Sequence record: OM982647
Source: Escherichia phage ST2
Reading direction: 5' to 3' (one strand)
DNA length: 64,000 nucleotides
Shown here piece by piece: positions 3,896 to 52,746 of the stretch. How positions within the stretch are numbered: the stretch's first letter is position 1; every line of letters begins with the position of its first letter. The notes beneath the pieces were generated by a model. The model saw nothing but the letters and a program-made list of their open reading frames with translations, was not told where the DNA came from and made no database searches. The position numbers and the translations under genes are program-made.

Positions 3896-3930
3896 TGATA
3901 GTATCACACATCCATGTGTTTGTAAACTAT
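3896..3930 (-). promoter_or_regulatory. T4-type early promoter
   Basis: Minus strand GTTTACA, 18-nt spacer, GATACTAT -10. Confidence 0.5.
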
Positions 3931-6014
3931 CCTTGGACAAATTTAAACGGAACTGATTCTAAATCCATTAAAGATGCTAACAATTTCAAACCTTTAGGTG
4001 CACTAGTTTTTTCTACAAATGAGGAGAACGATACCGGCTCATCTGATTCGATTTCACCCGCCATAGCAACCACCTCGCCTGTTTCCATGAGAACATCGCC
4101 GTCGTAAATGACAGCTTCATCCAACTGGTCCGAGGACATGACTTCAGCTTGAATAAATTTAAGGTTGGATTCTAAACCTGCACCGGTGTCAGATGACGCA
4201 TCTGTAATTTTATTTATCTGCAAGAGAATGCCTCTAGGCAAAATAATTTCTTGCTCATTAGGGTGATTACTCAACTGTCCTGGATAAATCACGTTAACTT
4301 TATGGGCGCCATCAATAGCCCATCCAACGTTAACACGGATTTGTTCTGGTGCATGCATAGCTGTTCTTACTTGACTAGGAGAAATGGTAACACCTTCGTC
4401 ATTATTGTCAATGTTAAGCTCTTTGCGAACTTCTTCAGGAGCAAGTCCAAGGGCAACGTTCTCTTTAAACCCGCCGAAAATAATAGGAGCTAGTGAAGTG
4501 GAAACATAGTTTCTGAAGTAGAATACCTTATTTTTAACCATTGCTTCGTAAATAGGCATTCTGATAGACTGAGCTCTATATAACGTTAGTCCTTCAGGTA
4601 AACGGTCTCCATTTAAAAACGCCGAATCAAGACCATCAATAGCGCGTTTAACTTCATCTTCATCCGCAACATCGTAAAAATCTGGTTTATAACGACCTAA
4701 CAACATATTATTGATATCGGTATACGCAGAAGAGGCATATTCACGAATAGCTCGTTTTTCAGCAACAGAGTATTGTTTAGGGTCCCGATTCATTGTTATA
4801 TTAAAGGTGCCTCTAGCCGATTCTCGTGCATAAGTATACATCACATTAGACAAGAACGCTGATTTACGTTGTTTCCAAGTTTTTTCAGATACTTCAGCTA
4901 AAACATCGTCGGCCAGTTGGAAATTATCACGTCTAAAATCTTCAAACCATTCGTCTTTAATAGAGTCTGCAATTTCGTTTGCAGCTTCAACAAAAGCAGC
5001 TAATGCTTTAACAGATGTTGTTTTTTCAGTTTTAATTTTCTTAGCAAACTTTTCTAAAGTTGGCTTAATAACACTACCATAAGAAACTTCATCAGCAAAT
5101 CTAAAGGATTCATCAATACGATTATAAATCTTATTTTCGATATCAGCAACTAAAGTGCCTTTTGCTGTGGATGATGCTTGGGCTAGTACGATTTCATATG
5201 CTTCAGGAAGTAATTCGGCTGTAGCCGGGCCACTAACTTCTTTAGCAGAATTTTCGTATTTCTGGAATAACTCACCTTCTTGGCGGTCAGCTTCTAAAGA
5301 TTGGCTTGCGGCAATAGCGCGCCGAGAAATTTTAGTACGAGCAATAACAGGCTTATCTTTACGTTTTTCTTCTACAGCAGCAATAGAACCAGCGATAGCC
5401 GTTTCTTTGGTGACCTTTTCGCCAGTCTTTTTACTCACATAAACTTCGCCAACATCAGAATCTACTTTCGTGTACAACTCTGTGTTAATGTTAGGGATGC
5501 CTTTAATATCTTCAATGTTGGCATTTTTACGAACCATCATCACATAGGTGTGTTTACCTGTGAATTGATACATTGCCGACAATACTTTAAAACGACCACC
5601 GGTTTTAGTAGAAACTAAACGAGCAAGAAGAGTTTGAAGTTGTTGTCCGCGTCCTTTCAATTTCTTGGTAGGGAATCTGAACAGAACCGCGTCCATACGA
5701 AGAGCTTTAACCTGTTCATATACTGTATTGAAAATGGTGTTGATTGCATCAATAGGAGCAGGACCAAGACCGTTTTTCAATTCAGCGAGATTACCCTTTT
5801 CAGACAGACTCATAATAACGACATGAGCATATTTGTCGCCAAGTTTAACTTGTTTTACAGCATCGCCTTCAGAAAGGTAAGAGAATAAGCGAACTACGAT
5901 GTTTGTATCGATATCACCAATTTTCCAGACTTGTGGAACTTTAGCTTTAGGGTTCAAATTGACGACAGGAAGACTGCCTTCAGATTCAAACACTTCATTT
6001 AATTGTTCAGACAT
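3927..6014 (-). CDS. alt: Alt-like ADP-ribosyltransferase (virion-injected)
   Basis: 695 aa (T4 Alt 682 aa); R-S-EXE motifs LYRAQ / YVSTS / NEQEI; between 54 and 30 as in T4. Confidence 0.75.
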   Translation of the reverse strand: MSEQLNEVFESEGSLPVVNLNPKAKVPQVWKIGDIDTNIVVRLFSYLSEGDAVKQVKLGDKYAHVVIMSLSEKGNLAELKNGLGPAPIDAINTIFNTVYEQVKALRMDAVLFRFPTKKLKGRGQQLQTLLARLVSTKTGGRFKVLSAMYQFTGKHTYVMMVRKNANIEDIKGIPNINTELYTKVDSDVGEVYVSKKTGEKVTKETAIAGSIAAVEEKRKDKPVIARTKISRRAIAASQSLEADRQEGELFQKYENSAKEVSGPATAELLPEAYEIVLAQASSTAKGTLVADIENKIYNRIDESFRFADEVSYGSVIKPTLEKFAKKIKTEKTTSVKALAAFVEAANEIADSIKDEWFEDFRRDNFQLADDVLAEVSEKTWKQRKSAFLSNVMYTYARESARGTFNITMNRDPKQYSVAEKRAIREYASSAYTDINNMLLGRYKPDFYDVADEDEVKRAIDGLDSAFLNGDRLPEGLTLYRAQSIRMPIYEAMVKNKVFYFRNYVSTSLAPIIFGGFKENVALGLAPEEVRKELNIDNNDEGVTISPSQVRTAMHAPEQIRVNVGWAIDGAHKVNVIYPGQLSNHPNEQEIILPRGILLQINKITDASSDTGAGLESNLKFIQAEVMSSDQLDEAVIYDGDVLMETGEVVAMAGEIESDEPVSFSSFVEKTSAPKGLKLLASLMDLESVPFKFVQG

Positions 6015-28787: not shown

Positions 28788-31700
28788 ATGGTTGACATCA
28801 AACGTAAGTTCAGGGCCGAAGATGGTCTTGACGCAGGCGGTGATAAGATAGTTAACGTTGCGCTTGCTGACCGCACAGTTGGCACCGATGGCGTGAACGT
28901 TGACTTTTTGGTGCAAGAAAACACCGTACAGAATTATGACGATACGCGCGCGTATACAAAAGATTTTATTGTTCTTTATGATAATCGTTTTTATCAAGCT
29001 TTAAGCGATATTCCAGCTCCGGCAGGCCCTTTCTCTTTGGCTAAATGGAAGGCAACTCGTACAGATGCAGAATGGATTACAGTTCAAGGCGGAGATTTCC
29101 AATTATCAGTAGGTAACTCTATTGCGGTTGATACTTCAGCTGGCACTGATATTAATTTCACTTTGCCTCAAAATCCTTTAGATGGCGATACAGTTATTTT
29201 GTCTGATATTGGCGGTAGAGTAGGCTATGTAAAAGTTCAAATTACTGCAGCGGCTCAAAGTATTGTAGACTTTAGAGGACAACAGGTTCGTTCAGTTTTA
29301 ATGACGCACCCAAAATCTAAAATGGTCTTCATTTTTAGCAACCGCCTATGGCAAATGTATGTTTCTGATTACGAACGTAATGCAGTCACAGTAACTCCTG
29401 CCACGCCATATCAAGCGCAACCTAATGATTTTATCATTCGACGTTTTACATCAGCCGCTCCTATTAATATTACATTGCCTCGTAATGCTAATAATGGCGA
29501 TATTATTAATTTAGTGGATTTAGACAAATTAAACCCATTATATCACACAATTGTCAAAACTTACGATGAAACAACTTCTATACGAGAAGCTGGTGTTCAT
29601 GTAGCAGAAGGACGTAATACTGCGGAAGCATTCTTTGTTTATGATTCTGCCAATAGTTTATGGCGTGTTTGGGAAGGTGACCAGAAATCTCGTTTACGTA
29701 TAGTTCGTAATGATACTGATTTACGCCCTAATGAAGAAGTTCTTGTTTTTGGAACTAATAATGATACAATCTCGACGGTAAATCTTACTTTGCCTACAGA
29801 TATTTTGTCTGGCGATACTGTTAAAATATCGTTGAATTATATGCGTAAAGGGCAAACTGTAAAAATTAAAGCTGCTGAAGGCGATACAATTGCTAGCAGT
29901 ATTTCTTTATTACAGTTCCCAAAACGTTCGGAGTATCCACCTGATGCACAATGGGTTTCTGTTAGTGAGCTGGAATTTAATGGTGATACTTCGTATGTAC
30001 CTGTACTTGAGTTATCTTATATAGAAGATTATTCATCTGAAACAAAATATTGGGTAGTTCAACAAAACACCGTAACCGTCGAACGAGTCGATGCATCGAG
30101 CAATACCACTCGAGCTCGTTTAGGTGTTATTGCTCTTGCTTCTCAAGCGCAAGCAAATGTCGATTTAGAAAATGCTCCTGGTAAAGAACTGGCTATTACT
30201 CCGGAAACATTAGCAAATCGTACAGCAACTGAAACTCGTCGTGGTATTGCTCGTATTGCAACAACTGCACAAGTTAACCAGAATACCGATTTTGCATTCC
30301 AAGACGACTTGATTATTTCTCCTAAGAAATTGAACGAACGTACAGCAACCGAAACCCGTAGAGGTGTTGCTGAAGTTGCAACTCAGGCTGAAACTAATGC
30401 CGGAACAGATGACACCACTATTATTACTCCTAAGAAATTGGATGCCCGTCAAGGTTCTGAAGTTTTATCTGGTATTGTAAAATACACATCTACGACTGGT
30501 ACTACAGCTGCTACTATTCGTGGTAATGCTGGGACTAACGTTTATAACAAAGCCGTAGATAATTTAACTATTTCTCCAAAGGCCCTTGACCAATATAAAG
30601 CTACCCCTACTCAGCAGGGTGCAGTAATTCTTGCTATTGAAAGTGAAGTTATCGCTGGCGAATCACAGGCCGGTTGGGCTAATGCTGTAGTGACCCCTGA
30701 AACTCTGCATAAGAAAACTTCTACTGATGGACGTATTGGTTTAATTGAAATTGCTACGCAAGCAGAAACTAACACTGGAACTGATTATACTAGAGCAGTA
30801 ACGCCTAAGACGTTAAACGATAGGAAAGCTACGGAAGGATTATCTGGCATAGCCGAAATTGCTACGCAAGTTGAATTTGATACTGGAACTGATGATACTC
30901 GTATCTCGACTCCACTGAAAATTAAAACTCATTTTGATTCTTCTGACCGTACCAGTGTTAATTCTGATTCCGGACTTATTGAAGAAGGAACCTTGTGGAA
31001 CCATTATACTCTTGATATTTCTAAAGCAAATGAAACACAACGTGGTACACTTCGCGTAGCGACCCAGGCAGAATCTAATGCAGGAACTTTAGATGATGTT
31101 CTTATTACTCCTAAAAAGCTTTTAGGGACTAAGTCCACTGAAACGTCTGAAGGCGTAATTAAGGTTGCTACTCAGGCTGAAACTGTAACAGGAACTTCTG
31201 CTAATACTGCTGTATCACCTAAGAATTTAAAATGGATTGTTCAATCAGAACCATCATGGACTGCTACTACGGCAATTCGTGGATTCGTTAAAACTTCATC
31301 TGGTTCTATTACATTTGTTGGTAATGATACAGTTGGTTCAACACAATCTTTAGAATCATATGAGAAAAATAGCTATGCGGTATCACCATATGAATTAAAC
31401 CGTGTACTTGCTAACTACTTACCGTTGAAAGCTAAAGCAGCTGATAGTAATTTGTTAGATGGTCTAGATTCTCTTCAGTTCATCCGTAGAGACATCGACC
31501 AGACGGTTAATGGTTCTTTAAGTCTTACTAAACAGACCAACCTGAGTGCTCCTTTAGTATCTACAAGCACTGCTTCTTTTGGTTCCGAAGCATCTGTTAC
31601 TCGTAGATTAACTCTTAATGATTCTAGCGGTTCTGAAATAATTTTCACTAAAGGAACCCAATCTCTTAGTAATAAAGAGAATTTCGTTGTTAGAGCATGG

Positions 31701-32621
31701 GGTAATAGCGCTACAGATGGTGCCCGTGATACAGTATTTGAAGCGGGTGATGAAACCGGATACCATTTCTATTCTCAGCGCGCTGCTGATAATAGAGTAT
31801 CATTTAATATTAATGGAACACTTTATTCAACAGGTATTGTTTCTACAAATGGATTAAATGTTACAGGTGTTTCTACCTTTACAGGGCCTATTAGTGCTAC
31901 AGGCGAAATTGTTTCTAGTTCTCCTATTGCATTCAGAGCTATTAACGGTAACTATGGTGTTATGCTTTATAATGCTGGTAACAGTTCTTATATTGCATTA
32001 ACTAACTCAGGTGACCAGACCGGGACGTTTAATAACTTACGCCCGATCACGATTAACAACGCCACAGGCTTAGTTCGTCTTGACAATGGTGTTCAAATCA
32101 CGAGTGGTGCAACAATAACTACCGGTGGATTAACTGTAAATAACAGAATTATTTCTAACGGCGTTAAAACTGCCACTGTTTATACCGATAAACCAACAGC
32201 TTCTACTGTAGGTTTTTGGTCTATTGACATTAACGATTCTGCTGTATATAGCCAATTCCCTGGATACTGGACGCGTGATAACAAAGGTAACCGTGACCAA
32301 GAAATTAAATATCCTGGTACTTTGACTCAATTCGGTAATAGCTTAGATTCACTTTATCAGGATTGGATTTGTTATCCTACAGGTGCAAATGGTGGTAGCA
32401 TTCGATATACTCGTACCTGGCAGAAAAATAAAGATGCTTGGACTTCATTTGCAATGGTATTTGATAGTGGCAACCCACCTTCACCTAGCGATGTTGGTGC
32501 TATACCATCTGATAATGCTGTTATTGGAAACCTTACTATTCGAGACTTCTTACAATTAGGAAATGTGAGAATTGTTCCAGACCCGGTTAACAAAACAGTT
32601 AAATTTATATGGGTTGAATAA
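28788..32621 (+). CDS. 34: Long tail fiber proximal subunit
   Basis: 1277 aa (T4 1289); internal repeat motifs; first gene of 34-35-36-37 late cluster. Confidence 0.85.
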   Translation: MVDIKRKFRAEDGLDAGGDKIVNVALADRTVGTDGVNVDFLVQENTVQNYDDTRAYTKDFIVLYDNRFYQALSDIPAPAGPFSLAKWKATRTDAEWITVQGGDFQLSVGNSIAVDTSAGTDINFTLPQNPLDGDTVILSDIGGRVGYVKVQITAAAQSIVDFRGQQVRSVLMTHPKSKMVFIFSNRLWQMYVSDYERNAVTVTPATPYQAQPNDFIIRRFTSAAPINITLPRNANNGDIINLVDLDKLNPLYHTIVKTYDETTSIREAGVHVAEGRNTAEAFFVYDSANSLWRVWEGDQKSRLRIVRNDTDLRPNEEVLVFGTNNDTISTVNLTLPTDILSGDTVKISLNYMRKGQTVKIKAAEGDTIASSISLLQFPKRSEYPPDAQWVSVSELEFNGDTSYVPVLELSYIEDYSSETKYWVVQQNTVTVERVDASSNTTRARLGVIALASQAQANVDLENAPGKELAITPETLANRTATETRRGIARIATTAQVNQNTDFAFQDDLIISPKKLNERTATETRRGVAEVATQAETNAGTDDTTIITPKKLDARQGSEVLSGIVKYTSTTGTTAATIRGNAGTNVYNKAVDNLTISPKALDQYKATPTQQGAVILAIESEVIAGESQAGWANAVVTPETLHKKTSTDGRIGLIEIATQAETNTGTDYTRAVTPKTLNDRKATEGLSGIAEIATQVEFDTGTDDTRISTPLKIKTHFDSSDRTSVNSDSGLIEEGTLWNHYTLDISKANETQRGTLRVATQAESNAGTLDDVLITPKKLLGTKSTETSEGVIKVATQAETVTGTSANTAVSPKNLKWIVQSEPSWTATTAIRGFVKTSSGSITFVGNDTVGSTQSLESYEKNSYAVSPYELNRVLANYLPLKAKAADSNLLDGLDSLQFIRRDIDQTVNGSLSLTKQTNLSAPLVSTSTASFGSEASVTRRLTLNDSSGSEIIFTKGTQSLSNKENFVVRAWGNSATDGARDTVFEAGDETGYHFYSQRAADNRVSFNINGTLYSTGIVSTNGLNVTGVSTFTGPISATGEIVSSSPIAFRAINGNYGVMLYNAGNSSYIALTNSGDQTGTFNNLRPITINNATGLVRLDNGVQITSGATITTGGLTVNNRIISNGVKTATVYTDKPTASTVGFWSIDINDSAVYSQFPGYWTRDNKGNRDQEIKYPGTLTQFGNSLDSLYQDWICYPTGANGGSIRYTRTWQKNKDAWTSFAMVFDSGNPPSPSDVGAIPSDNAVIGNLTIRDFLQLGNVRIVPDPVNKTVKFIWVE
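30200..31230 (+). repeat. Imperfect in-frame tandem repeats inside gene 34
   Basis: Repeated peptide modules (T/A)ATETRRG(I/V)A..ATQA..N.GTD...I(T/S)PKKL at least 6 times. Confidence 0.5.
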
Positions 32622-32629
32622 GAGGTTAT

Positions 32630-33754
32630 ATGGAAAAATTTATGGCAAGGTTTGGACAGGGATACGTCCAAACGCCGTTTTTATCGGAAAGCAATTCAGT
32701 TAGATTTAAGCTAAGTATAGCGGGTTCATGCCCGCTTTCAACAACTAATCCGTATATTTTGTTCCAAAACGAGCCTTTAGGGTTGCAGTCTTTTGGTATT
32801 GGACTAAATGTTAGGGTGATAAATCCGGAAAATGGAACTATAGTTGATAGTAAATTATACAATTTTGCGCCTACAAATAATGCAACTTCGGCCGCGTTTA
32901 TTTCGTTTGTTAATACATACGCGGATAATTTCATTTTCGCATTTATTTCTAATAACAAATTTAATTTGCCGCCAGAAATAATTGAATGGTTTAAAGCTGC
33001 TGGGAGTTCAGTTATACCGTCAATTGAAGTTGCTAGTCTTGTTGATATTTCATATTCAGCGTTTTATGTTTCAGGTAAAAATACTATTGCATTAGAACAC
33101 ATAAAATACAGTAATAAGAAAACAATTTCTGATTACGCAACTCCATTAGATATTGTATATGACTCTATTGCTGATATAGGTGCTACCGGCTATCCTAGAC
33201 GTACATATGAAGCTTTAGAAACGTTTTTATCTCCTATTGGAGAAACTAACAATGAAATAAAAAGGATGCCTACATCATCCCTTGTTACTCCTATCGCAAA
33301 CTATGGATTAAAGCCTACAGATTTTCTTTATTTGAAATTTCAATTAATGGCTGATGAAGAATTATTAGAGGAAGGAACCACAAGACTTTCAATTCGTTTC
33401 TTTAAGTCTCCATCTAGCTCTCCTATATCATCTAAAGATATAAACTTTGATGGAACTGCCGGGGAGTGGAAGCTATATGAAGAATACGTTGAAATACCAG
33501 CTGAAGCTGATGGCTTTACAGTATATTGTTACCGTACGGCCTCAGTCGGTCAAGGTGGACTAAGAAATGTTATTTTCACTGAAGTATCATGTAACGGAAG
33601 TATAGCAAAACCCGCCGAGTTTGGTATAAACGGTATTCGTGTTAATTACATTGATGAATCATTAACCGGTAATGATATAATGGACTTGCCTACTCAGTTA
33701 TCTAACGACACAGGTAAGGTATTTGGGCAGGAATTTAAAGAGTACACAGAATAA
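32630..33754 (+). CDS. 35: Long tail fiber hinge connector
   Basis: 374 aa (T4 372); position. Confidence 0.75.
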   Translation: MEKFMARFGQGYVQTPFLSESNSVRFKLSIAGSCPLSTTNPYILFQNEPLGLQSFGIGLNVRVINPENGTIVDSKLYNFAPTNNATSAAFISFVNTYADNFIFAFISNNKFNLPPEIIEWFKAAGSSVIPSIEVASLVDISYSAFYVSGKNTIALEHIKYSNKKTISDYATPLDIVYDSIADIGATGYPRRTYEALETFLSPIGETNNEIKRMPTSSLVTPIANYGLKPTDFLYLKFQLMADEELLEEGTTRLSIRFFKSPSSSPISSKDINFDGTAGEWKLYEEYVEIPAEADGFTVYCYRTASVGQGGLRNVIFTEVSCNGSIAKPAEFGINGIRVNYIDESLTGNDIMDLPTQLSNDTGKVFGQEFKEYTE

Positions 33755-33813: not shown

Positions 33814-34470
33814 ATGGCCGATTTAAAAGCCGGAAGTACAGTTGGTGGTTCCGTCATATGGCATCAAGGCAATTTTCCTTTAATGCCAGCTGGCGATGAC
33901 ATCCTATATAAAACATTTAAATTATACACCGAATATAACAAGCCAAAAGCGGCTGATAATGATTTCGTATCTAAAGCAAATGGTGGGACATATCTCAAAA
34001 AGGTAATCTTTAACGAAGGTATTGCAGTCAAAACAGCAGATGACCAAACGAATGGTATTTTTTCTGGTGGTGGTGACGCCGCGACATTCGACCAAACAAA
34101 CATGGATATTGTTTCGTGGTATGGTATTGGGTTTAAATCATCTCAAGGTACAGGTGAAAGAACTGTTGTAATTGATACTCGCACCGGTAATATAAGTTCT
34201 AAAGGTGTTATTGAAGCATCTCAATTCAGAGCCACAACGTTAGCACCTTTAAATAATTACGACCTTACTCGCAAAGATTATGTTGATAGTCAAATAAATA
34301 CAGTTAATGCTAATGCAAACAGTCGTGTACTCCGTTCAGGAGATACGATGACCGGCGCGCTAACAGCCCCAAACTTTTTCTCACAGAATCCTGCATCTCA
34401 ACCCTCGCATGTTCCACGATTTGACCAAATTGTTATTAAGGATTCTGTTCAAGATTTCGGCTATTATTAA
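33814..34470 (+). CDS. 36: Long tail fiber distal connector
   Basis: 218 aa (T4 221); position. Confidence 0.75.
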   Translation: MADLKAGSTVGGSVIWHQGNFPLMPAGDDILYKTFKLYTEYNKPKAADNDFVSKANGGTYLKKVIFNEGIAVKTADDQTNGIFSGGGDAATFDQTNMDIVSWYGIGFKSSQGTGERTVVIDTRTGNISSKGVIEASQFRATTLAPLNNYDLTRKDYVDSQINTVNANANSRVLRSGDTMTGALTAPNFFSQNPASQPSHVPRFDQIVIKDSVQDFGYY

Positions 34471-34478
34471 GAGGACTT

Positions 34479-37400
34479 ATGGCTACTTTAAAACAAATAC
34501 AATTTAAAAGAAGCAAAACTGCAGGAGCACGTCCTGCCGCTTCAGTATTAGCCGAAGGTGAATTGGCTATAAACTTAAAAGACCGTGTACTTTTTACTAA
34601 AGATGACCAAGGAAATATTATTGATCTGGGTTTTGCTAAAGGCGGTAGTATTGACGGGAATGTTATTCATACAGGCAATTATAACCAAACTGGCGATTAT
34701 ACTTTAAATGGGGTCTTCACTCAGACTGGTAATTTTAATTTAACCGGTATTGCTCGAGTAACTCGTGATATTATTGCCGCTGGGCAGATTATGACTGAAG
34801 GCGGAGAACTTATTACAAAAAGTTCGGGTACAGCGCATGTTCGTTTTTTCGATGGCAATAGTCGCGAACGTGGAATCATTTATGCCCCGGCTAATGATGG
34901 ATTAACTACACAAGTACTTAATATCAGGGTTCAAGACTACGCCGCTGGTAGCGAAAGCACTTATGCATTTTCAGGCAGTGGCCTATTTACTTCACCTGAA
35001 GTATCAGCATGGAAATCTATGTCAACTCCTCAGATTTTGACTGACAAAGTCATTACAGACGGGAAGAAGACAGGCGATTATGATATCTATTCATTATCAA
35101 ATAACACTCCAATGGCAGAAGGCGAAACGGCTATTAACCACCTCCGTGTTATGCGAAATGCTGTAGGAGCAGGTATTTTCCACGAAGTTAATGTTAATGA
35201 CGGAATAACCTGGTATTCCGGAGATGGACTTGACACTTATCTTTGGTCGTTTAACTGGGCCGGTGGATTGAAAGCCGGTCATTCTATTTCTGTAGGTCTT
35301 CCAGGCGGCCCCAAAGGATATTCTGAATTAGGAACGGCCTCAATTGTTCTTGGGGATAATGATACCGGGCTAAAATGGCATCAGGACGGATATTTCTATA
35401 CAGTAAACAACGGAACAAAAACTTTCATCTATGGTCCAGGAGAAACGCAAAGCCTTAGAAAAATGGTTATGGCTTATTCTCCAGATGGGCTTCTTATGAC
35501 AACGCCGCCGACAGAAAACTATGCTTTGGCTACTGTTGTTACTTACCATGATAATAATGCGTATGGTGACGGTCAAACTCTTTTAGGATATTATCAAGGT
35601 GGTAATTATCATCATTATTTCCGCGGCAAGGGTACCACAAACATTAATACTCATGGCGGTTTGTTAGTTACTCCAGGTAATATTGATGTTATTGGCGGTT
35701 CTGTTAATATAGATGGTAGAAATAATTCTTCTACACTAATGTTTAGAGGCAACACAACAGGATACAGCTCGGTTGATAATATGGATATTAAAGTTTGGGG
35801 TAATACGTTTGTTGATCCAAGCGGAGGTATCCGTAAAAACATTATGGAAATTTCTGATGCAACTAGCTGGATGAGCTATATTCAAAGACTTACTACTGGC
35901 GAAGTAGAAATGAACGTTAATGGTTCATTTGAATCATCTGGTGTTACTGCTGGAGATAGAGGAGTTCACACAACAGGTGAAATTTCATCTGGAGCAGTGA
36001 ATGCTCTTCGTATTTGGAACGCAGATTATGGAGCCATTTTTAGACGTTCAGAAGGAAGTCTTCATATTATTCCAACTGCTTATGGCGAAGGCAAAGATGG
36101 CGATATCGGTCCACTTCGCCCGTTTAGTATGGCTTTAGATACCGGTAAAGTTACTATTCCAGATTTACAATCAAGTTACAATACGTTCGCTGCGAACGGC
36201 TATATTAAATTTGTTGGCCATGGTGCAGGCGCAGGTGGATATGATATTCAATATGCCCAAGCGGCTCCTATTTTCCAAGAAATTGATGATGCTGAGGTAA
36301 GCAAATATTATCCTATTGTTAAGCAGAAATTTTTACAAGGAAAAGCAGTTTGGTCTTTAGGTACTGAAATTAATTCAGGTACATTCGTGATACACCATAT
36401 CAAAGAAGACGGGACTCAAGCTCATACATCAAGATTTAATGCTGACGGTACAGTTAATTTCCCTGATAATGTTCAGGTTGGTGGCGGTGAAGCTACTATT
36501 GCTCGAAATGGTAATATCTTCTCCAACATTTGGAACGTATTTACCTCTGCTGGTGATATAACCAACATTCATGATGCCATTGCCTCCCGTGTGGCTAAAG
36601 AAGGCGACACGATGACAGGTAAGTTGAGTATTAATGCCCCAGACGATGCTTTAGTATTAAATGCTCCTAGTGCAACTAACTCATCTCATATTCGTTCGAC
36701 TGTCGCTGGAGCAAATAGCTGGTTCATAGGTAAAGGTGGAGTGTCAGACACCGTATCTTTTTATAACTATAAGTCCCAGACAGGTATAGATATATCAGCA
36801 GAAGGTAATATTTCATTTAACCCACAATCGGGTAACCTGGTCAGCATGAGCCAGAACCGTATGTATGTTAACGGCGAAAGATGGGTGGCCACAAACCAAG
36901 GTGCAATTAATGTGCAATACGGCGTTGAAGCTCCAGTATTTGTTAACTTAGGCGAGTTAAATGGTAACGTATACTATCCATTGATAAAGGGTCGAAGCTC
37001 TTCCACCGGATATGGTTACCTAAGTAGTGTTGAGCTTGGCCAATTACGTACAGGTGACAATAACTGGGGTATTGGTTGTATAATTGTTCGCTCGGCTGAA
37101 AATACACCAGAACAAGGACATCCGGCAGCAGTATACCAGTTTGACGCTAGAGGTAACTTTAGTGCTCCAGCCGGGGTTTATTCGAACGTTAATATGGGCA
37201 TTGGCACTATTCCTGTATGGGGTGGTCCATCTCTTGCAATCGGCGACAATGATACTGGATTTGTATGGGAAGCAGACGGTATTTTCAACGCATATGCAAA
37301 CGGCCAAGGTGTGTTTAGTTTTAGACCTGGTTTAGCTCAGACATTCGGTAATGTTAACTTCCACTGTAATGCAGGTATGTATGTTCGTGATAACATTGAT

Positions 37401-37742
37401 GTTAACGACGTTTATATTCGTTCTGATATTCGTTGTAAGTCGGAAATTAAGCTTATTAAGAACGCTCAAGAGAAATCTAAACTATTGGGCGGTTATACTT
37501 ATCTGCTTAAAAACTCTGTTACAGACGAAGTTAAACCGTCCGCAGGTTTAATTGCTCAGGAAGTTCAAGAAGTATTACCTGAACTTGTTTCTGAAGATAA
37601 AGAGACCGGACTGCTTCGTTTGAACTATAACGGTATTATTGGTTTAAATACAGCTGCAATAAACGAGCATACAGATGAAATCAAGGAATTGAAATCTGAA
37701 ATTACCGAATTGAAAGCATTAATTAAATCATTGATAAAATAA
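34479..37742 (+). CDS. 37: Long tail fiber distal subunit with C-terminal intramolecular-chaperone-like domain
   Basis: 1087 aa; C-terminal ~105 aa carries SDIRCK and GLIAQEVQEVLPELV motifs typical of auto-cleaving chaperone domains. Confidence 0.8.
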   Translation: MATLKQIQFKRSKTAGARPAASVLAEGELAINLKDRVLFTKDDQGNIIDLGFAKGGSIDGNVIHTGNYNQTGDYTLNGVFTQTGNFNLTGIARVTRDIIAAGQIMTEGGELITKSSGTAHVRFFDGNSRERGIIYAPANDGLTTQVLNIRVQDYAAGSESTYAFSGSGLFTSPEVSAWKSMSTPQILTDKVITDGKKTGDYDIYSLSNNTPMAEGETAINHLRVMRNAVGAGIFHEVNVNDGITWYSGDGLDTYLWSFNWAGGLKAGHSISVGLPGGPKGYSELGTASIVLGDNDTGLKWHQDGYFYTVNNGTKTFIYGPGETQSLRKMVMAYSPDGLLMTTPPTENYALATVVTYHDNNAYGDGQTLLGYYQGGNYHHYFRGKGTTNINTHGGLLVTPGNIDVIGGSVNIDGRNNSSTLMFRGNTTGYSSVDNMDIKVWGNTFVDPSGGIRKNIMEISDATSWMSYIQRLTTGEVEMNVNGSFESSGVTAGDRGVHTTGEISSGAVNALRIWNADYGAIFRRSEGSLHIIPTAYGEGKDGDIGPLRPFSMALDTGKVTIPDLQSSYNTFAANGYIKFVGHGAGAGGYDIQYAQAAPIFQEIDDAEVSKYYPIVKQKFLQGKAVWSLGTEINSGTFVIHHIKEDGTQAHTSRFNADGTVNFPDNVQVGGGEATIARNGNIFSNIWNVFTSAGDITNIHDAIASRVAKEGDTMTGKLSINAPDDALVLNAPSATNSSHIRSTVAGANSWFIGKGGVSDTVSFYNYKSQTGIDISAEGNISFNPQSGNLVSMSQNRMYVNGERWVATNQGAINVQYGVEAPVFVNLGELNGNVYYPLIKGRSSSTGYGYLSSVELGQLRTGDNNWGIGCIIVRSAENTPEQGHPAAVYQFDARGNFSAPAGVYSNVNMGIGTIPVWGGPSLAIGDNDTGFVWEADGIFNAYANGQGVFSFRPGLAQTFGNVNFHCNAGMYVRDNIDVNDVYIRSDIRCKSEIKLIKNAQEKSKLLGGYTYLLKNSVTDEVKPSAGLIAQEVQEVLPELVSEDKETGLLRLNYNGIIGLNTAAINEHTDEIKELKSEITELKALIKSLIK

Positions 37743-37747
37743 TAAAA

Positions 37748-37761
37748 GGGCCTTCGGGCCC
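37748..37761 (+). terminator. UUCG hairpin (no U-run; likely mRNA-stabilising stem-loop)
   Basis: GGGCC-TTCG-GGCCC immediately after gene 37 stop. Confidence 0.4.
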
Positions 37762-37772
37762 TGGAGGTTTAT

Positions 37773-38552
37773 ATGGCAGTAGTAGGAATCCCTGGTTGGA
37801 TTGGGACCTCAGCCGTTGCTGAAACGGGTCAAAGATGGATGACGGCTGCTTCAAGGGAACTTCGTTTAGGAAACCCTTCATGGATGTCCCAATTCGCGGG
37901 CCGTTCAAGAGAAATAATTCATACACTTGGTGCAGACCATAACTTTAACGGACAATGGTTCCGAGATAGATGTTTTGAGGCAGGTAGTACACCTATAGTG
38001 TTTAATATCACTGGAGATTTAGTATCATATTCTAAAGATGTTCCTTTATTCTTCATGTACGGAGATACACCGAATGAATATGTTCAGTTGAATATACACG
38101 GCGTAACGATGTATGGACGTGGGGGTAATGGCGGTAGCAATAGTCCTGGCTCAGCTGGAGGTCATTGTATTCAAAACGATATTGGTGGGAGACTAAGAAT
38201 TAATAATGGTGGAGCTATTGCAGGCGGCGGTGGCGGCGGTGGCGGCGGTATATATGGCAGACTATCATTTGGTGGTGGCGGTGGTCGTCCATTTGGTGCT
38301 GGTGGGTCTTCCTCTCATATGGGTGCTGGTGCAACCGCTGGCACCATTTCCGCTCCGGGTGCAGGATCTGTCGGTGAGGGGTCTCTTTGGGTATATACAG
38401 GCGGGAATGGCGGCGAAGTTGGCTCTGCAGGAGGAAGATGTAATATTCATGGTAACGGCACAGAATATAACGGCGGCGGTGCTGGTTATGCTGTTATAGG
38501 GTCTGCTCCAACGTGGATAAATGTTGGAGCAATATATGGTCCAAGAGTATAA
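37773..38552 (+). CDS. 38: T2-type receptor-recognising adhesin gp38
   Basis: 259 aa; N-terminus [15 protein letters not shown]...; C-terminal poly-Gly motifs separated by variable segments. Confidence 0.8.
38223..38249 (+). repeat. Perfect (GGCGGCGGT)x3 tandem repeat encoding Gly9 within gene 38
   Basis: 27 bp exact triplication. Confidence 0.8.
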
Positions 38553-38582: not shown

Positions 38583-39242
38583 ATGGCAACACCAAAAGTG
38601 TCATTTTCGCCTAGTGATATTCTATTTGGGTTGCTAGATCGTATTTTCAAAGATAACGCTACTGGAAAGGTTTTAATGTCTCGAGTAGCGGTAATTATTC
38701 TTTTGTTCCTAATGGCACTAATATGGTACAAAGGAAGTATTTTGCTGGATTATTATGTAAGAGCTAAGTATGATACTTATACTGAAATAATCCAAAAAGA
38801 ACGAGCTTTACGTTTTGAATCTGCGGCTCTAGAACAACTGCAAATAGTTCATATCTCATCTGGTGCAGATTTTAGTGCTGTGTATTCTTTCAGACCTAAA
38901 AACTTAAATTATTTCGTCGACCTTATAGCTTATGAAGGCAAACTACCTAGCACAATTTCTGAAAAGTCCCTTGGCGGATTCCCGGTGGATAAAACGGCTA
39001 ATGAATATATAATTCATTTAAGTGGCCGTCATTTCTCATCTAAATCAGAATTTGCATTTTTGCCTACAAAATCTAAGACCGCCGAACTTTCTTATATGTA
39101 TAGTTGCCCATACTTTAATTTGGATAACATCTACGCTGGAACTGTGACGATGTATTGGTATAAGGGGAATAATATACTTGAGGAGGAACGCTTAGCGGCT
39201 ATATGCAACCAAGCGGTCCGAATACTAGGAAGGGCTAAATAA
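38583..39242 (+). CDS. t: Holin
   Basis: 219 aa; MATPKVSFSPSDILFGLLDRIFKDNATGKVLMSRVAVIILLF... as T4 T; single TM then periplasmic domain. Confidence 0.9.
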   Translation: MATPKVSFSPSDILFGLLDRIFKDNATGKVLMSRVAVIILLFLMALIWYKGSILLDYYVRAKYDTYTEIIQKERALRFESAALEQLQIVHISSGADFSAVYSFRPKNLNYFVDLIAYEGKLPSTISEKSLGGFPVDKTANEYIIHLSGRHFSSKSEFAFLPTKSKTAELSYMYSCPYFNLDNIYAGTVTMYWYKGNNILEEERLAAICNQAVRILGRAK

Positions 39243-39515
39243 TTAGTTGTTAGAATACATCGCTAAATGACGATAAATATTTTCAAAACCTTCATTGAAT
39301 TCACTAATCAGTGTTTTCTTTTCTTCGGCAGTTAAATTTGTAATTAGTTTTCTGAACGAATTCTGATTTAGCTGCCGACCATCTTTTTTAATTCCAATCT
39401 CATTCAAGAATCCGATGAAACTTGCTCGGTCTTCAACAATATCTTCCCTAGAGAATTTAATCAAAATAGAAGCAATAGTAATAATTTCACGTACGATTTC
39501 AATGTCTTTATTCAT
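39243..39515 (-). CDS. asiA: Anti-sigma70 factor
   Basis: 90 aa; MNKDIEIVREIITIASILIKFSREDIVEDRASFIGFLNEIG... as T4 AsiA. Confidence 0.9.
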   Translation of the reverse strand: MNKDIEIVREIITIASILIKFSREDIVEDRASFIGFLNEIGIKKDGRQLNQNSFRKLITNLTAEEKKTLISEFNEGFENIYRHLAMYSNN

Positions 39516-42512: not shown

Positions 42513-43838
42513 TCAAAGTGCCTCCAAGTCTTTAGTGTACTCTGTCACAACATCAGTAGACTTCCAATACTCATTTTCTTCTTTCTTAGCTTTAGCTTCT
42601 TCTGCTAGTTTACGTGCTTCGTCGGAAGTGATATGGAAGATGTTAAGACCTACCAGTTTATCGACATGTTCTTTATACATTTCGATTTGTGCTAGCTCTT
42701 CAGTCAAAGCTTTACGAGTCTTGCCCTGAATCACAATTTCGCCACTGATAACTTTTTTGATGAAGTGTGCCTTAGCAAAAGCAAGTTTAAATGCTTTTTC
42801 AGATTCAAGGATTTTGTTATCAATACGTTTCTGAACGTAAGTCTTACGGACTTCAACAAAATCTTTGATTAAGTCCACTACGTTATCGTAGACCGCTAAT
42901 TTACCCTTTTCATTAATCACTGTGATGTTTTGTGAACGACGTTCGATGAGACTAAAATCTTTCATGATTTTTTCATGACGTAGCTCTTCATCATCAGGAA
43001 GCGAGTACTCTTTACGGAACTTCACCTTAAACCCAAAGCCATGTTCACCACAATCATCTTCCCATGAGATTAGACCTTTGTCTTCCAACGGGTCAAGAAC
43101 CTTACTCACATACGTTTCACGGTCGAATTTATATGGGATTTCAGTTATCTGCATTTGAGTGCGAGATGTGAACTTATATGTTCCGTGAATCTCATAACGC
43201 CCATCAACTTCATGTACTTCACCACGGAATTCTGGGAATTCAACTTTTGGCTTAGTGACATTTTTACCTTGAAGAGCTTGTAATACGGCCTTTTTGACTG
43301 ATTTAAAACTATGAGGCAGAATATTTGTTGCGTAACCGGTTGCAATACCAGAGACGCCATTCAAAAGAACTGTCGGAATAATAGGAAGATAGAATTTTGG
43401 TGGAATATGTTCTTTATCTTCATGAGCTGGAGCATATTCAGTATCTTTATATACGTTATAGAAATTTTTACTTACACGAGCAAAAATATAACGAGATGCT
43501 GCAGCTTTTTGGACTGTTCGAGAACCAAAGTTGCCTTGGCCATCTAACAGTGGATAGTTGTTGTTCCATGTGTTAGCCATCAATGCACCTGCATCTTGTG
43601 CAGAAGATTCACCATGGTGATAACCTAAATCTGCAACACCTCCTGCAATTGACGCAAGTTTATGAAATTTTTCTTTATTACCACGAGCCAAATCTAACGC
43701 ACGATGAACCACAAAACGTTGAACCGGCTTAAATCCATCAATCATGTTTGGGATTGCACGGTTTTCAACGGTGTACATCGCATATGCTAAGGCTTCGTTA
43801 TCAATAATACTTTTTAGATTACGAGAATTCAATTGCAT
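42513..43838 (-). CDS. 52: DNA topoisomerase II medium subunit (GyrA-like)
   Basis: 441 aa (T4 442); MQLNSRNLKSIIDNEALAYAMYTVENRAIPNMIDGFKPVQRF... Confidence 0.95.
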   Translation of the reverse strand: MQLNSRNLKSIIDNEALAYAMYTVENRAIPNMIDGFKPVQRFVVHRALDLARGNKEKFHKLASIAGGVADLGYHHGESSAQDAGALMANTWNNNYPLLDGQGNFGSRTVQKAAASRYIFARVSKNFYNVYKDTEYAPAHEDKEHIPPKFYLPIIPTVLLNGVSGIATGYATNILPHSFKSVKKAVLQALQGKNVTKPKVEFPEFRGEVHEVDGRYEIHGTYKFTSRTQMQITEIPYKFDRETYVSKVLDPLEDKGLISWEDDCGEHGFGFKVKFRKEYSLPDDEELRHEKIMKDFSLIERRSQNITVINEKGKLAVYDNVVDLIKDFVEVRKTYVQKRIDNKILESEKAFKLAFAKAHFIKKVISGEIVIQGKTRKALTEELAQIEMYKEHVDKLVGLNIFHITSDEARKLAEEAKAKKEENEYWKSTDVVTEYTKDLEAL

Positions 43839-47266: not shown

Positions 47267-49480
47267 TTATTTGGCCGCTTCCACGGCCTTCATGAATTTA
47301 ACGATTTGAGCGACCTGTTCTTTGGAAAGAGTACCACGTCGTCCCATGTATTCTGACACAATATGATAATTGGTTTCGAATTCAATAACCATTTTATCAT
47401 CATTATCGTAAGCATTATCTTTAAGCTTATCGAAAATTTTGGCACACAATTCTAACTTCCTGTTCAGGTCTCTGTTATCAGCGCCTGCGAATCGATTCCA
47501 TCCCCAACGATTATTTACTGTTGAAAGTTTTGCGAAATCTTTACTGATTTCTTTGTTCTTAGAGCTAAAATACTTACTAAGGAAGTTAAGTTCTTCATTA
47601 CGAGTAATATGATTCAAATAAGGCTGTGCTCTACGACTTGGTGATACATACTCATCATAATCCACTTTATCAATTAGCGTAATATAGTCGTTAATTGATT
47701 TTTCAAACAAGCATTCTACTTCACCAAGTTTACGAACTTTCTTAGCAATCTGTGGGCGAACTACAGTGAACTCTTTAATACCTGACAAATCAGCAATACG
47801 GGTCAAAAAATTGGAGTCATAGTTCAACCAACCTTTATCTGCGTCAAGACATTCAGCGTTAGAACGATTACGAATTACAACATAACCTTGAATCTCATCA
47901 GCTTTACTGGCCGGAATAAAAAGGTCTTCTGATACCCAAACATCTTTTTCGTTCTTGAAGAAACGATGGGCACTCGGTGATTTAGGGCGAGGCTGCGATG
48001 AACGTTCTTTAACTTCAATCCACGGTTTAACTAATGCAAGAATTTCAGAGGTCTTATAAAATTTAAGGCTATCACCAGCGAAAATAACCTTTAATCGTTC
48101 CAGAAGTTTCATTGCAACTTCATCTTCTGGGTTAATGAATAATACGCTACTACCCCATCCGGAAGGAACCTTATCAACGAGTGTTGATGCATCTGTGGAA
48201 GTCAAAGCATCGTTCAGAGCACGCATCATTGGTACGCGGCCTTTCACATCGTCAATAACAATATCAATATGCTTACGACTAATACCTAGCAGGCTATTAA
48301 TTGAAATAGTTGCAGACGAGCTTCCGCTTTCACGAATACGACGAAGTCGTGGGTCTGAAACGATATCATATACAACACCAAGGTTGCACCATTCGGGACC
48401 CATTTTAAAACGTTTGTACAACTCGGAATAAGTTAGTTGTTCTTTAGAGTATTTCAGTGATTCAATATTAGAACCGGCTTTTTCCATGTATTTACGAGCA
48501 GAGTAACCAAGAGAATCGATTTCACGGAATACATGACGTGGATATTCACAATCAATCCATTTCTTAGAATCTTCAGCAAATAATTTTGCATCGATTTCTG
48601 CAACACGTTTATGGATATTTGCTACTGTGCGTTTATCAAATGACAATGCTTCACGAGACGGGGCTACATCTAGTTCACCCATAGGGAATTTAATATAAGC
48701 TGTAGTGCATCGCGTCATCATCCATGTTTGTTCTTTAATAACACTTCCGATTGGATATACAATACCACCATAAACAGCCATGATATTACCACGTTCACCC
48801 CATGGAGCTTCCTTGGCCAAATATACATCGTCAAATTCAGGAAAGTATTTAATATCTTTAACACCGCGAACTTCTGCAATATCACCTAGAGGACGCATAA
48901 CATATGCAATTTCAGATGCGAACTTTTCAAAATCTTCTGGGTTAACCGGCACAACTACTTCTACACCCGTACGGTCATCAGGACCCATCTTATCTACAAA
49001 GGTTGGCTTAATTTGTGGACCCGTGTCATCTTGGTAGATTACGTAACCACGAACTTCACCGTTGTGATAAGACGTAAGGTTAAACGTATCGGTATATGCT
49101 AGTGGAGCTTTAGAGCCGAGTCCGAATCCACCAATGAAATCATTACTCGATGTTTTAGTTGAAGCAAAATATGAGTTATAGATTCCTGGCTCTTCGTCAT
49201 TACCTCGAATGGTGAAATCACTCATACCAGGACCAAAGTCTCGAACTACAAAACGTGGGTCTAAACGACCTGGAGCCTGAACAATAAACTTATCAGTGCA
49301 ACCATTAAGAATTTGACCATCGATACAGTTTGTGATTAATTCACGTACACAAGCCAATTCTTTGTTTGTATAAAGGTCATTAGACAAAATCTTATAAACT
49401 TTGCTATTGCCTTGAATAGTGAATGCTGTGCTCTTACCGCCTGAACCAATAATCGTTTCTTTAGCCGTTTCAATAATCAT
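47267..49480 (-). CDS. rIIA: rIIA
   Basis: 737 aa (T4 725); MIIETAKETIIGSGGKSTAFTIQG... Confidence 0.9.
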   Translation of the reverse strand: MIIETAKETIIGSGGKSTAFTIQGNSKVYKILSNDLYTNKELACVRELITNCIDGQILNGCTDKFIVQAPGRLDPRFVVRDFGPGMSDFTIRGNDEEPGIYNSYFASTKTSSNDFIGGFGLGSKAPLAYTDTFNLTSYHNGEVRGYVIYQDDTGPQIKPTFVDKMGPDDRTGVEVVVPVNPEDFEKFASEIAYVMRPLGDIAEVRGVKDIKYFPEFDDVYLAKEAPWGERGNIMAVYGGIVYPIGSVIKEQTWMMTRCTTAYIKFPMGELDVAPSREALSFDKRTVANIHKRVAEIDAKLFAEDSKKWIDCEYPRHVFREIDSLGYSARKYMEKAGSNIESLKYSKEQLTYSELYKRFKMGPEWCNLGVVYDIVSDPRLRRIRESGSSSATISINSLLGISRKHIDIVIDDVKGRVPMMRALNDALTSTDASTLVDKVPSGWGSSVLFINPEDEVAMKLLERLKVIFAGDSLKFYKTSEILALVKPWIEVKERSSQPRPKSPSAHRFFKNEKDVWVSEDLFIPASKADEIQGYVVIRNRSNAECLDADKGWLNYDSNFLTRIADLSGIKEFTVVRPQIAKKVRKLGEVECLFEKSINDYITLIDKVDYDEYVSPSRRAQPYLNHITRNEELNFLSKYFSSKNKEISKDFAKLSTVNNRWGWNRFAGADNRDLNRKLELCAKIFDKLKDNAYDNDDKMVIEFETNYHIVSEYMGRRGTLSKEQVAQIVKFMKAVEAAK

Positions 49481-50912: not shown

Positions 50913-50930
50913 AAGCTCCCGAAGGAGCTT
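50913..50930 (-). terminator. UUCG hairpin immediately after gene 39 stop
   Basis: AAGCTCC-CGAA-GGAGCTT. Confidence 0.4.
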
Positions 50931-52746
50931 AGGACATCCATTCTTTACGAAGTTCTGAATCATCACCCATCAACATTTCAAAGAGTTCTTTCCAATTTTC
51001 AGGAAGTTTAACTACGTCGTACACAGGGTTCTGAATCATTTCACGATATTCTGACTTTTCAAGGGAGCCTAATCCCTTGATGTATCGAATACTATGCTTA
51101 GGCAGTGTATCTTTAACTTCTTCATACTCAGCTACAGTATAAAACCATTTTTGAGTTTTGCCAATTTGTGCAATAATTACAGGCGTTTTAACAAAGCGAA
51201 TACGTCCTTGTTCAAACAATTCAGGCCAATTACTAAAGAAAGCAAGCAAAGCCGGATAGATACTTCCAAGACCGTCATGATCGGCATCGGTCATAATTGC
51301 AATATTACGATAGTTCGTATTCTCTGCCTTTTCACCAAGAATAAGACCTGTGATAGCACAGATATCAAAGAGCTCTTTGTTCTTCATCATATCGGCATAT
51401 GACATACCCCAGCTATTCATCACCTTACCACGTAATGGGAATCCGCCATGTAGTTCACGGTCACGAACATCAATGAGATAACCAATTGCCGAATCACCTT
51501 CTGTTAAGAACAATGTCGTATCTGCATCTTTACCACATTGGTTAGCTTTAATATGCTTATGAACCTTAGCTTTAGTTGCCTTTTTAGCTGCTTTAGTTTC
51601 TGCAGCCTTTTCTGCTGCCAATTTACGAGCTAATGCTGCTTCAACAATAGGCATAATCAAGGCTTCGTTTTTAAGAAGTGCCTGAGCAATTTTCTTAGCA
51701 TCTAATTGGATATGATTACGAATATCACCGTACGTTGACGTTAAACGTTCTTTAGTCTGAGAATCAAAACGCATGTTGCTCATGTCTCTAATAAACATCA
51801 ACATTGTGAGGCATTCTTTAACACGAGCTTTAGTGACTTCAATACCCTTATATTTCTTTTTAATACCGGGCAAAAGATGTTCGCAGATATCATCCATTAC
51901 GCATTCAACATGATGACCACCATTTTTAGTATGGATGTTATTCACATAAGTTAAATGTCGGAAGCCATCTGGTGATGTTGTGAATGCTATAGAGACTTTA
52001 TCATTTTCTTGAATGATGTTATCTTCGCCAAATTGTTTAGCAAATCGTTTAAAATTACCATCAACCTTTTTACCATTAAATGTGAACTTGATATCAGGAT
52101 AAACGACTGCCAATGTTTGAAGTCGGTCTAAAGTAATATCTAAATAAACTTGAGATAAATTATGCTCTTCAAATGAAGAGAAATCAGGAGTGAAGATTAC
52201 TTTAGTGCCTTTACCTTTAGATTTCTTAGAAGACCATGATTTGTTTTCCATTCCATTTGAACAGTTAACAGTGATTTCATTTTCGCCATCTGACGTGATG
52301 CCTGTAAACAACGTAGAGAAGATATTAGTTAAACTACTCCCGACGCCATTCATACCACCAGTCTTGCGTTCAGAGTCATCACCAAAGTTACCACCTGCCT
52401 TTGGAATAGTCCAGGCTGCTACAGGCCCAGGAATTTGTTCACCTGTTTGGTCGGTAACTAAACCTTGAGGAATACCACGTCCGTTATCTTCCACCGAAAC
52501 TTGATTATTTTTAATTTGCACATCAATTTTATTTGCAAACTTAAATGATGTACGAATAGCTTCATCAACCGAGTTGTCAATAATCTCATCGATTAATTTA
52601 ACCAGACCAGGAACATATTCAACTTGTTGATATTTACCAAACAAAAAACGCTCGTGGGCTTCTTTAGCCGAAGAACCAATATACATACCACTACGTTTCT
52701 TAATATGTTCTACATCTGACAATACCTTAATTTCATTTTTAATCAT
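50929..52746 (-). CDS. 39: DNA topoisomerase II large subunit, unsplit (GyrB-like ATPase plus Toprim in one ORF)
   Basis: 605 aa single ORF; GHKL ATPase N-terminus; length as T2-type fused 39+60. Confidence 0.85.
   Translation of the reverse strand: MIKNEIKVLSDVEHIKKRSGMYIGSSAKEAHERFLFGKYQQVEYVPGLVKLIDEIIDNSVDEAIRTSFKFANKIDVQIKNNQVSVEDNGRGIPQGLVTDQTGEQIPGPVAAWTIPKAGGNFGDDSERKTGGMNGVGSSLTNIFSTLFTGITSDGENEITVNCSNGMENKSWSSKKSKGKGTKVIFTPDFSSFEEHNLSQVYLDITLDRLQTLAVVYPDIKFTFNGKKVDGNFKRFAKQFGEDNIIQENDKVSIAFTTSPDGFRHLTYVNNIHTKNGGHHVECVMDDICEHLLPGIKKKYKGIEVTKARVKECLTMLMFIRDMSNMRFDSQTKERLTSTYGDIRNHIQLDAKKIAQALLKNEALIMPIVEAALARKLAAEKAAETKAAKKATKAKVHKHIKANQCGKDADTTLFLTEGDSAIGYLIDVRDRELHGGFPLRGKVMNSWGMSYADMMKNKELFDICAITGLILGEKAENTNYRNIAIMTDADHDGLGSIYPALLAFFSNWPELFEQGRIRFVKTPVIIAQIGKTQKWFYTVAEYEEVKDTLPKHSIRYIKGLGSLEKSEYREMIQNPVYDVVKLPENWKELFEMLMGDDSELRKEWMS

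Follow-up and report, generated by a model that had tools for sequence, protein, structure and literature searches.

The distal tail fibre locus

We analysed a 64,000-nucleotide stretch of Escherichia phage ST2 (sequence record OM982647), referred to here as the window. It carries a T-even long-tail-fibre block comprising gp34 (28788-32621), the hinge protein gp35 (32630-33754) and gp36 (33814-34470), which leads into gene 37 (34479..37742, plus strand, stop codon included). In the list of open reading frames, gene 37 encodes a long tail fibre distal subunit precursor of 1087 aa and 116.7 kDa, and PHROG 1699 ('long tail fiber protein distal subunit') matches this protein across residues 1-1085. 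Immediately downstream sits gene 38 (37773..38552, plus strand), an adhesin gene with a glycine-rich specificity domain, followed by the holin gene t (38583-39242) and, on the minus strand, asiA (39243-39515). Gene 37 closes with a double stop, TAATAA (in the 37740-37767 region of the window). A GGGCC-UUCG-GGCCC tetraloop hairpin follows at 37747-37762 and abuts the gp38 Shine-Dalgarno sequence GGAGG (37763-37767); the folding energy of a 61-nt stretch containing this hairpin was no better than that of shuffled sequences (z = -1.08).

The original prediction had singled out the end of gp37, from the motif SDIRCK onwards, as a folding module that cleaves itself off and finishes in a coiled coil. 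SDIRCK occurs once in gp37, at residues 982-987 (37422-37439); the numbering of Ser982 and the coordinates of the segment proved exact, and GLIAQEVQEVLPELV was found in the gp37 tail. From Ser982 to the last residue the segment measures 106 aa and 11.75 kDa. The coiled-coil tail is likewise real. Heptad analysis places Ile/Leu at a/d positions through the final ~37 residues, and AlphaFold models residues 1050-1086 (37626..37736, plus strand) as one long helix with a pLDDT of 86-94 (109-145 of the 146-aa fragment), which aligns with the C-terminal helix of S16 gp37. Judged by the model, the heptads and the S16 alignment, this helix is predicted to form a trimeric coiled-coil stalk.

A compact chaperone domain of peptidase S74 type

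A profile search for the intramolecular chaperone or peptidase S74 domain, set beforehand as a test of the prediction, was positive. Pfam PF13884 (Peptidase_S74, 'Chaperone of endosialidase') matched gp37 residues 982-1037 at E = 8.3e-12, covering positions 1-57 of the 58 in the profile and scoring 45.7 bits where the gathering cut-off is 22 bits; searching the gp37 tail alone gave E = 2.1e-13. The match begins exactly at Ser982, which falls on profile position 1, and it delimits the core of the domain (37422..37589, plus strand). The NCBIfam search returned a single sub-threshold and meaningless match, PRK11627 (17.6 bits versus 242).

Comparisons with proteins of solved structure converged on the same core. 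Searching PDB sequences with phmmer identified the S16 gp37 distal fragment 6F45_A as the best relative (E = 1e-24), in an alignment that spans from just upstream of Ser982 through the final residue, along with a weak match to human myelin regulatory factor (MyRF), in its auto-processing ICA domain (7dc3, E = 0.02). A profile built from the window gp37 and 13 database homologues (alignment A1) matched 6F45_A at 4e-35, the MyRF ICA domain 7dc3 at 1.8e-9 and the phage tail fibre 8jov at 1.1e-6. The invariant positions of this alignment include the block AGLIAQ-V--LPE-V and the motif LNYN.

We modelled gp37 residues 942-1087 as a monomer with AlphaFold, which gave a pLDDT of 71-94 over the chaperone part only. 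In this monomer the predicted fold runs from a small alpha/beta unit into a long C-terminal helix, as expected of the S74 family. Forty-nine residues spanning the predicted cleavage site had a pLDDT below 50, presumably because they are part of an interdigitated trimer. Foldseek placed the model closest to the MyRF ICA domain in the PDB (7dc3, 3e-5, probability 1.00) and next to the 'Intramolecular Chaperone' of K1F endoNF (3gw6, 3e-3, probability 0.99), with moderate TM-scores of 0.43-0.52; the PDB search with this model gave no credible match besides these two. Residues 982-1087, the last 106 aa at the extreme C terminus of gp37, thus belong to peptidase S74 as an intramolecular chaperone domain, in a compact form. 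The T5 and K1F domains share its Ser-Lys spacing, its C-terminal place on a trimeric fibre or spike and its terminal helix, but they are bigger (133 and 154 aa) and bear long beta-hairpin 'tentacle' inserts that are gapped here. Without tentacle inserts, the gp37 domain therefore approaches the MyRF ICA domain (7dc3) more closely in size.

Because the word-indexed protein search yielded 16 short fragment proteins, enough for a profile and too few for a survey, we assessed distribution by tblastn against phage genomes. The last 126 aa of gp37 found homologous segments in 1819 phage records, which include Escherichia, Salmonella, Klebsiella, Vibrio, Aeromonas and Synechococcus phages, among others. 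Among the matches listed, the segment lay almost always under an annotated tail-fibre gene. In PHROGs, it closes the C terminus of some two dozen tail-fibre families.

The Ser-Lys dyad and the predicted cleavage site

Ser982 (37422..37424, plus strand) is the predicted nucleophile and the P1' residue of a scissile Arg981-Ser982 bond, as indicated by its place at PF13884 position 1 and by its conservation in each of the 13 homologues covering the site (13/13, alignment A1). Lys987 (37437..37439, plus strand), five residues on, is the predicted general base of the dyad; like the serine it is kept in these 13 homologues, and it occupies a nearly invariant column of the same alignment. We took the T2, T5 and K1F sequences from a phage collection, anchored the alignment on the catalytic Ser and read the residues directly. 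The +5 spacing is common to gp37 (S982/K987), T5 pb1 (S1264/K1269), K1F endoNF (S911/K916) and T2 gp37 (S1243/K1248), so the expectation that Ser and Lys would be spaced as in an endosialidase-type dyad holds, the interval being equal to those of the experimentally characterised dyads of K1F endoNF and T5 pb1.

Taken as a bare pattern, S-x4-K is not significant by itself, since it occurs four times in gp37; we rejected the spacing as stand-alone evidence and let its significance rest on the PF13884 profile match. Those four occurrences are also what would favour reading the segment as a chance motif beside a generic coiled coil, lacking any chaperone or protease domain. We consider this vanishingly unlikely. 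PF13884 scores at twice its gathering threshold, the sequence and fold matches in the PDB are specific to chaperone/ICA domains, and the 1819 phage records with a homologous segment place it at tail-fibre genes among the matches listed. Chance resemblance is refuted by the PF13884, phmmer 6F45_A, profile and Foldseek matches.

The S74 assignment invites comparison with homologues whose processing has been described. In T5 pb1, the scissile bond is Thr1263-Ser1264 and the S1264A substitution blocks autoproteolysis; Lys1269 is proposed to activate the serine, with Arg1250 of a neighbouring chain as a folding sensor (PMC4690869). Oxyanion residues as well as the sensor Arg, upstream of the scissile bond, are described for both T5 and K1F. 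Upstream of the predicted cut, gp37 has Arg970 and Arg981, which are candidates for such a sensor; T5 has Arg1250/Asp1239, the alignment here is ambiguous, the model has a pLDDT below 50, and T2 gp37 is without an Arg at -12.

S16 gp37 offers a close parallel (6F45; Dunne et al. 2018), as the domain likewise lies at the end of a T-even gp37, carries an SD-R-K motif and has a T2-type gp38 with three Trp encoded downstream. According to Salem et al. (PMC7917993), its last 113 residues are an intramolecular chaperone that cuts itself between the two serines of DLNVS^SDRRIKK, by which the docking surface for gp38 is exposed. A second source groups the S16 fibre with those of K1F, phi29 and T5, whose C-terminal chaperone domains are removed by autoproteolysis (PMC7289586). 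The two proteins differ in domain length (106 aa here, 113 aa in S16), in the five residues before the cut (DVYIR here, DLNVS in S16) and in a mid-domain insert of ~6 residues that S16 has and ST2 lacks.

T2 gp37 reads NVYIR|SDIRLK at Ser1243, a motif much like the one here, ahead of a 99-aa tail whose terminal helix is shorter; identity between the T2 and ST2 chaperone domains is ~19-38% over residues 951-1087. The gp37 proteins of the Yersinia phages fPS-2, -65 and -90 have the identical five residues before the Ser, with the motif SDGRLKI in place of SDIRCKS; their cut is predicted at DVYIR^SDGRLKI, followed by chaperone release and gp38 docking (PMC7917993), and is thus likewise a prediction. 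From the S74 boundary and the homologue cleavage sites (S^S in S16, T1263^S1264 in T5 and DVYIR^SD in the fPS phages), we predict a mature gp37 of residues 1-981 (34479..37421, plus strand; 105.0 kDa) that ends in ...NDVYIR981.

A genuine S74-type chaperone module could in principle be cut off by another protease, of phage or host origin. The T2 literature leaves some room for this reading. By the title of Drexler, Riede & Henning (1986, J Mol Biol 191:267; cited in PMC3157838), 'proteolytic processing' of gp37 is part of T2 fibre morphogenesis, and Trojet et al. (2011; PMC3157838), who cite this work, describe the T2/T6 gp37 as 'proteolytically cleaved', then capped by gp38, with the agent unnamed in those lines. 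We regard a separate protease as very improbable here: the Ser-Lys dyad of gp37 is intact and strictly conserved, a single Ser-to-Ala change in T5 abolishes cleavage when the protein is made recombinantly in E. coli with no other phage protein present (PMC4690869), and S16 cleavage is described as autocleavage (PMC7917993, PMC7289586).

Another reading is that the segment serves as a trimerization and chaperone module that is kept in the mature fibre, cleavage having been lost. The catalytic motif might be taken to hint at this, as SDIRCK contains a Cys that is unusual among relatives. Yet gp37 has both dyad residues, and the variable position of the motif is tolerant in active homologues, with L in T5, R in K1F and I in S16, so that retention of the domain also appears highly unlikely. 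The residue in question, Cys986 (37434-37436), is flanked by the Arg of the motif and the catalytic Lys; relatives carry V, L, I, S or R at this position. Another Cys, Cys963 (37365-37367), lies 19 residues upstream of the predicted cut. Self-cleavage at Arg981-Ser982 is the reading we favour. The claim that gp37 ends in a chaperone-type self-cleaving module draws support from the PF13884 match, the dyad spacing and the predicted fold, with cleavage in the phage itself inferred.

Predicted gp38 docking and a putative fibre tip cassette

The partner of gp37 is a T2-type gp38. Its gene product matches the Pfam families GP38 (6e-68) and Gp38_N (6e-21), and its solved relatives are PP01 gp38, the best match (9v85, E = 3e-77), and S16 gp38 (6F45_D, 1e-53). 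The N-terminal attachment domain, residues 1-42 (37773..37898, plus strand), is covered by PF21721 and contains Trp9, Trp22 and Trp37, which align with the Trp residues of S16 gp38. A CASP13 account by the authors of the S16 structure, which covers the gp37-gp38 interface and not the chaperone domain, describes how, at the base of the gp37 beta-helix, three symmetry-related hydrophobic pockets take up these Trp of S16 gp38 (PMC6851490); the Trp prongs of gp38 are also described in PMC7917993. T5- and K1F-type tips, unlike this one, have no separate adhesin cap. In all features tested, gp37 fits a T2/S16-type fibre tip, with gp38 as the putative adhesin that caps the processed end.

By analogy with the T5, S16 and T2 homologues, we infer for gp37 a chaperone role, self-cleavage and exposure of the gp38 site. 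In the mechanism we propose, the helical stalk of the chaperone domain would trimerize and bring three gp37 chains into register, after which the distal beta-helical tip of gp37 would fold. Once the trimer is folded, Ser982, activated by Lys987, would attack the Arg981-Ser982 bond in each chain, and the chaperone trimer would leave, releasing the 11.75-kDa domain, which would stay out of the virion. The new C-terminal face, formed by three copies of ...DVYIR981, would then serve as a platform on which one gp38 docks through its N-terminal three-tryptophan helical bundle. We hold it very likely that this scheme, an S74 chaperone with self-cleavage at Arg981-Ser982 and gp38 docking on the new face, is the correct one overall. 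The further proposal that removal of the segment exposes the site where gp38 binds agrees with the literature on S16 and T2/T6 and with the T2-type gp38 of this phage, and would follow from a cleavage that is itself predicted here.

Two variations on this scheme are suggested by the unusual Cys residue alone. Cys986 and Cys963 might couple cleavage to redox state, or the 11.75-kDa trimer, once released, might do a second job, such as passing gp38 to the newly made tip. We give such a coupling or second job only a very slim chance.

The nearest deposited genomes are those of Escherichia phages PhAPEC2 (Mosigvirus phapec2) and AlbertHofmann (Bas47), the latter also classified as Mosigvirus phapec2. 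AlbertHofmann has the same gene order, 35-36-37-38-t-asiA, and the last 126 aa of its gp37 are 100% identical. Nucleotide identity with PhAPEC2 is 98.6% across gene 37 and the first part of gene 38, in a match that breaks off ~360 nt into the latter. The annotations deposited for the matched regions of AlbertHofmann and PhAPEC2 do not record the S74 domain.

Identity with AlbertHofmann is distributed unevenly along the tip. It is 34-74% over gp37 residues 701-950 (36579-37328), 98-100% over residues 951-1087 (from 37329), 100% over gp38 residues 1-45 and only 49% over the glycine-rich specificity domain of gp38 (residues 121-259, 38133-38549). From this pattern we surmise that the tip of gp37, its chaperone domain and the attachment domain of gp38 travel as one conserved cassette. 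These parts, extending to 37898, look like a single co-inherited unit between two variable segments that determine host range, and the gp38 host-range module has been exchanged relative to AlbertHofmann and PhAPEC2. The 'lock-and-key' pairing of gp37 C termini with gp38 N termini described by Trojet et al. (PMC3157838) fits such a cassette.

A self-cleaving gp37 domain is already known, being established for T2 and S16 and predicted for the fPS phages, in which the five residues ahead of the cut are identical. The value of the present assignment thus lies mainly in correct annotation and in fibre engineering, and it adds no new biology. For expression of the fibre, swaps of gp38 adhesins or chimeric designs, residues 982-1087 should be kept in the construct and expected to be absent from the product, and ...DVYIR981 should be treated as the true gp37 C terminus seen by gp38.

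We also recorded several features elsewhere in the window. Residues 58-131 of gp35 match the Pfam family ILEI ('Interleukin-like EMT inducer') barely over threshold (30.2 bits versus 27, E = 6e-7). Within gp37, residues 453-550 (35835-36128) match the proximal-fibre Gp34_trimer domain (29.4 bits versus 27), which suggests a shaft module common to gp34 and gp37. A search of the window for tRNA genes found none. Pfam gives no match at E <= 1e-5 for a 737-aa open reading frame on the minus strand (47267-49480), which has as large neighbours topoisomerase subunits, a frame at 42513-43838 and another at 50929-52746. On the same strand, a 695-aa protein (3927-6014) carries the ADP-ribosyltransferase exoenzyme domain PF03496 (E = 6e-28), as expected of a T-even Alt-like protein.
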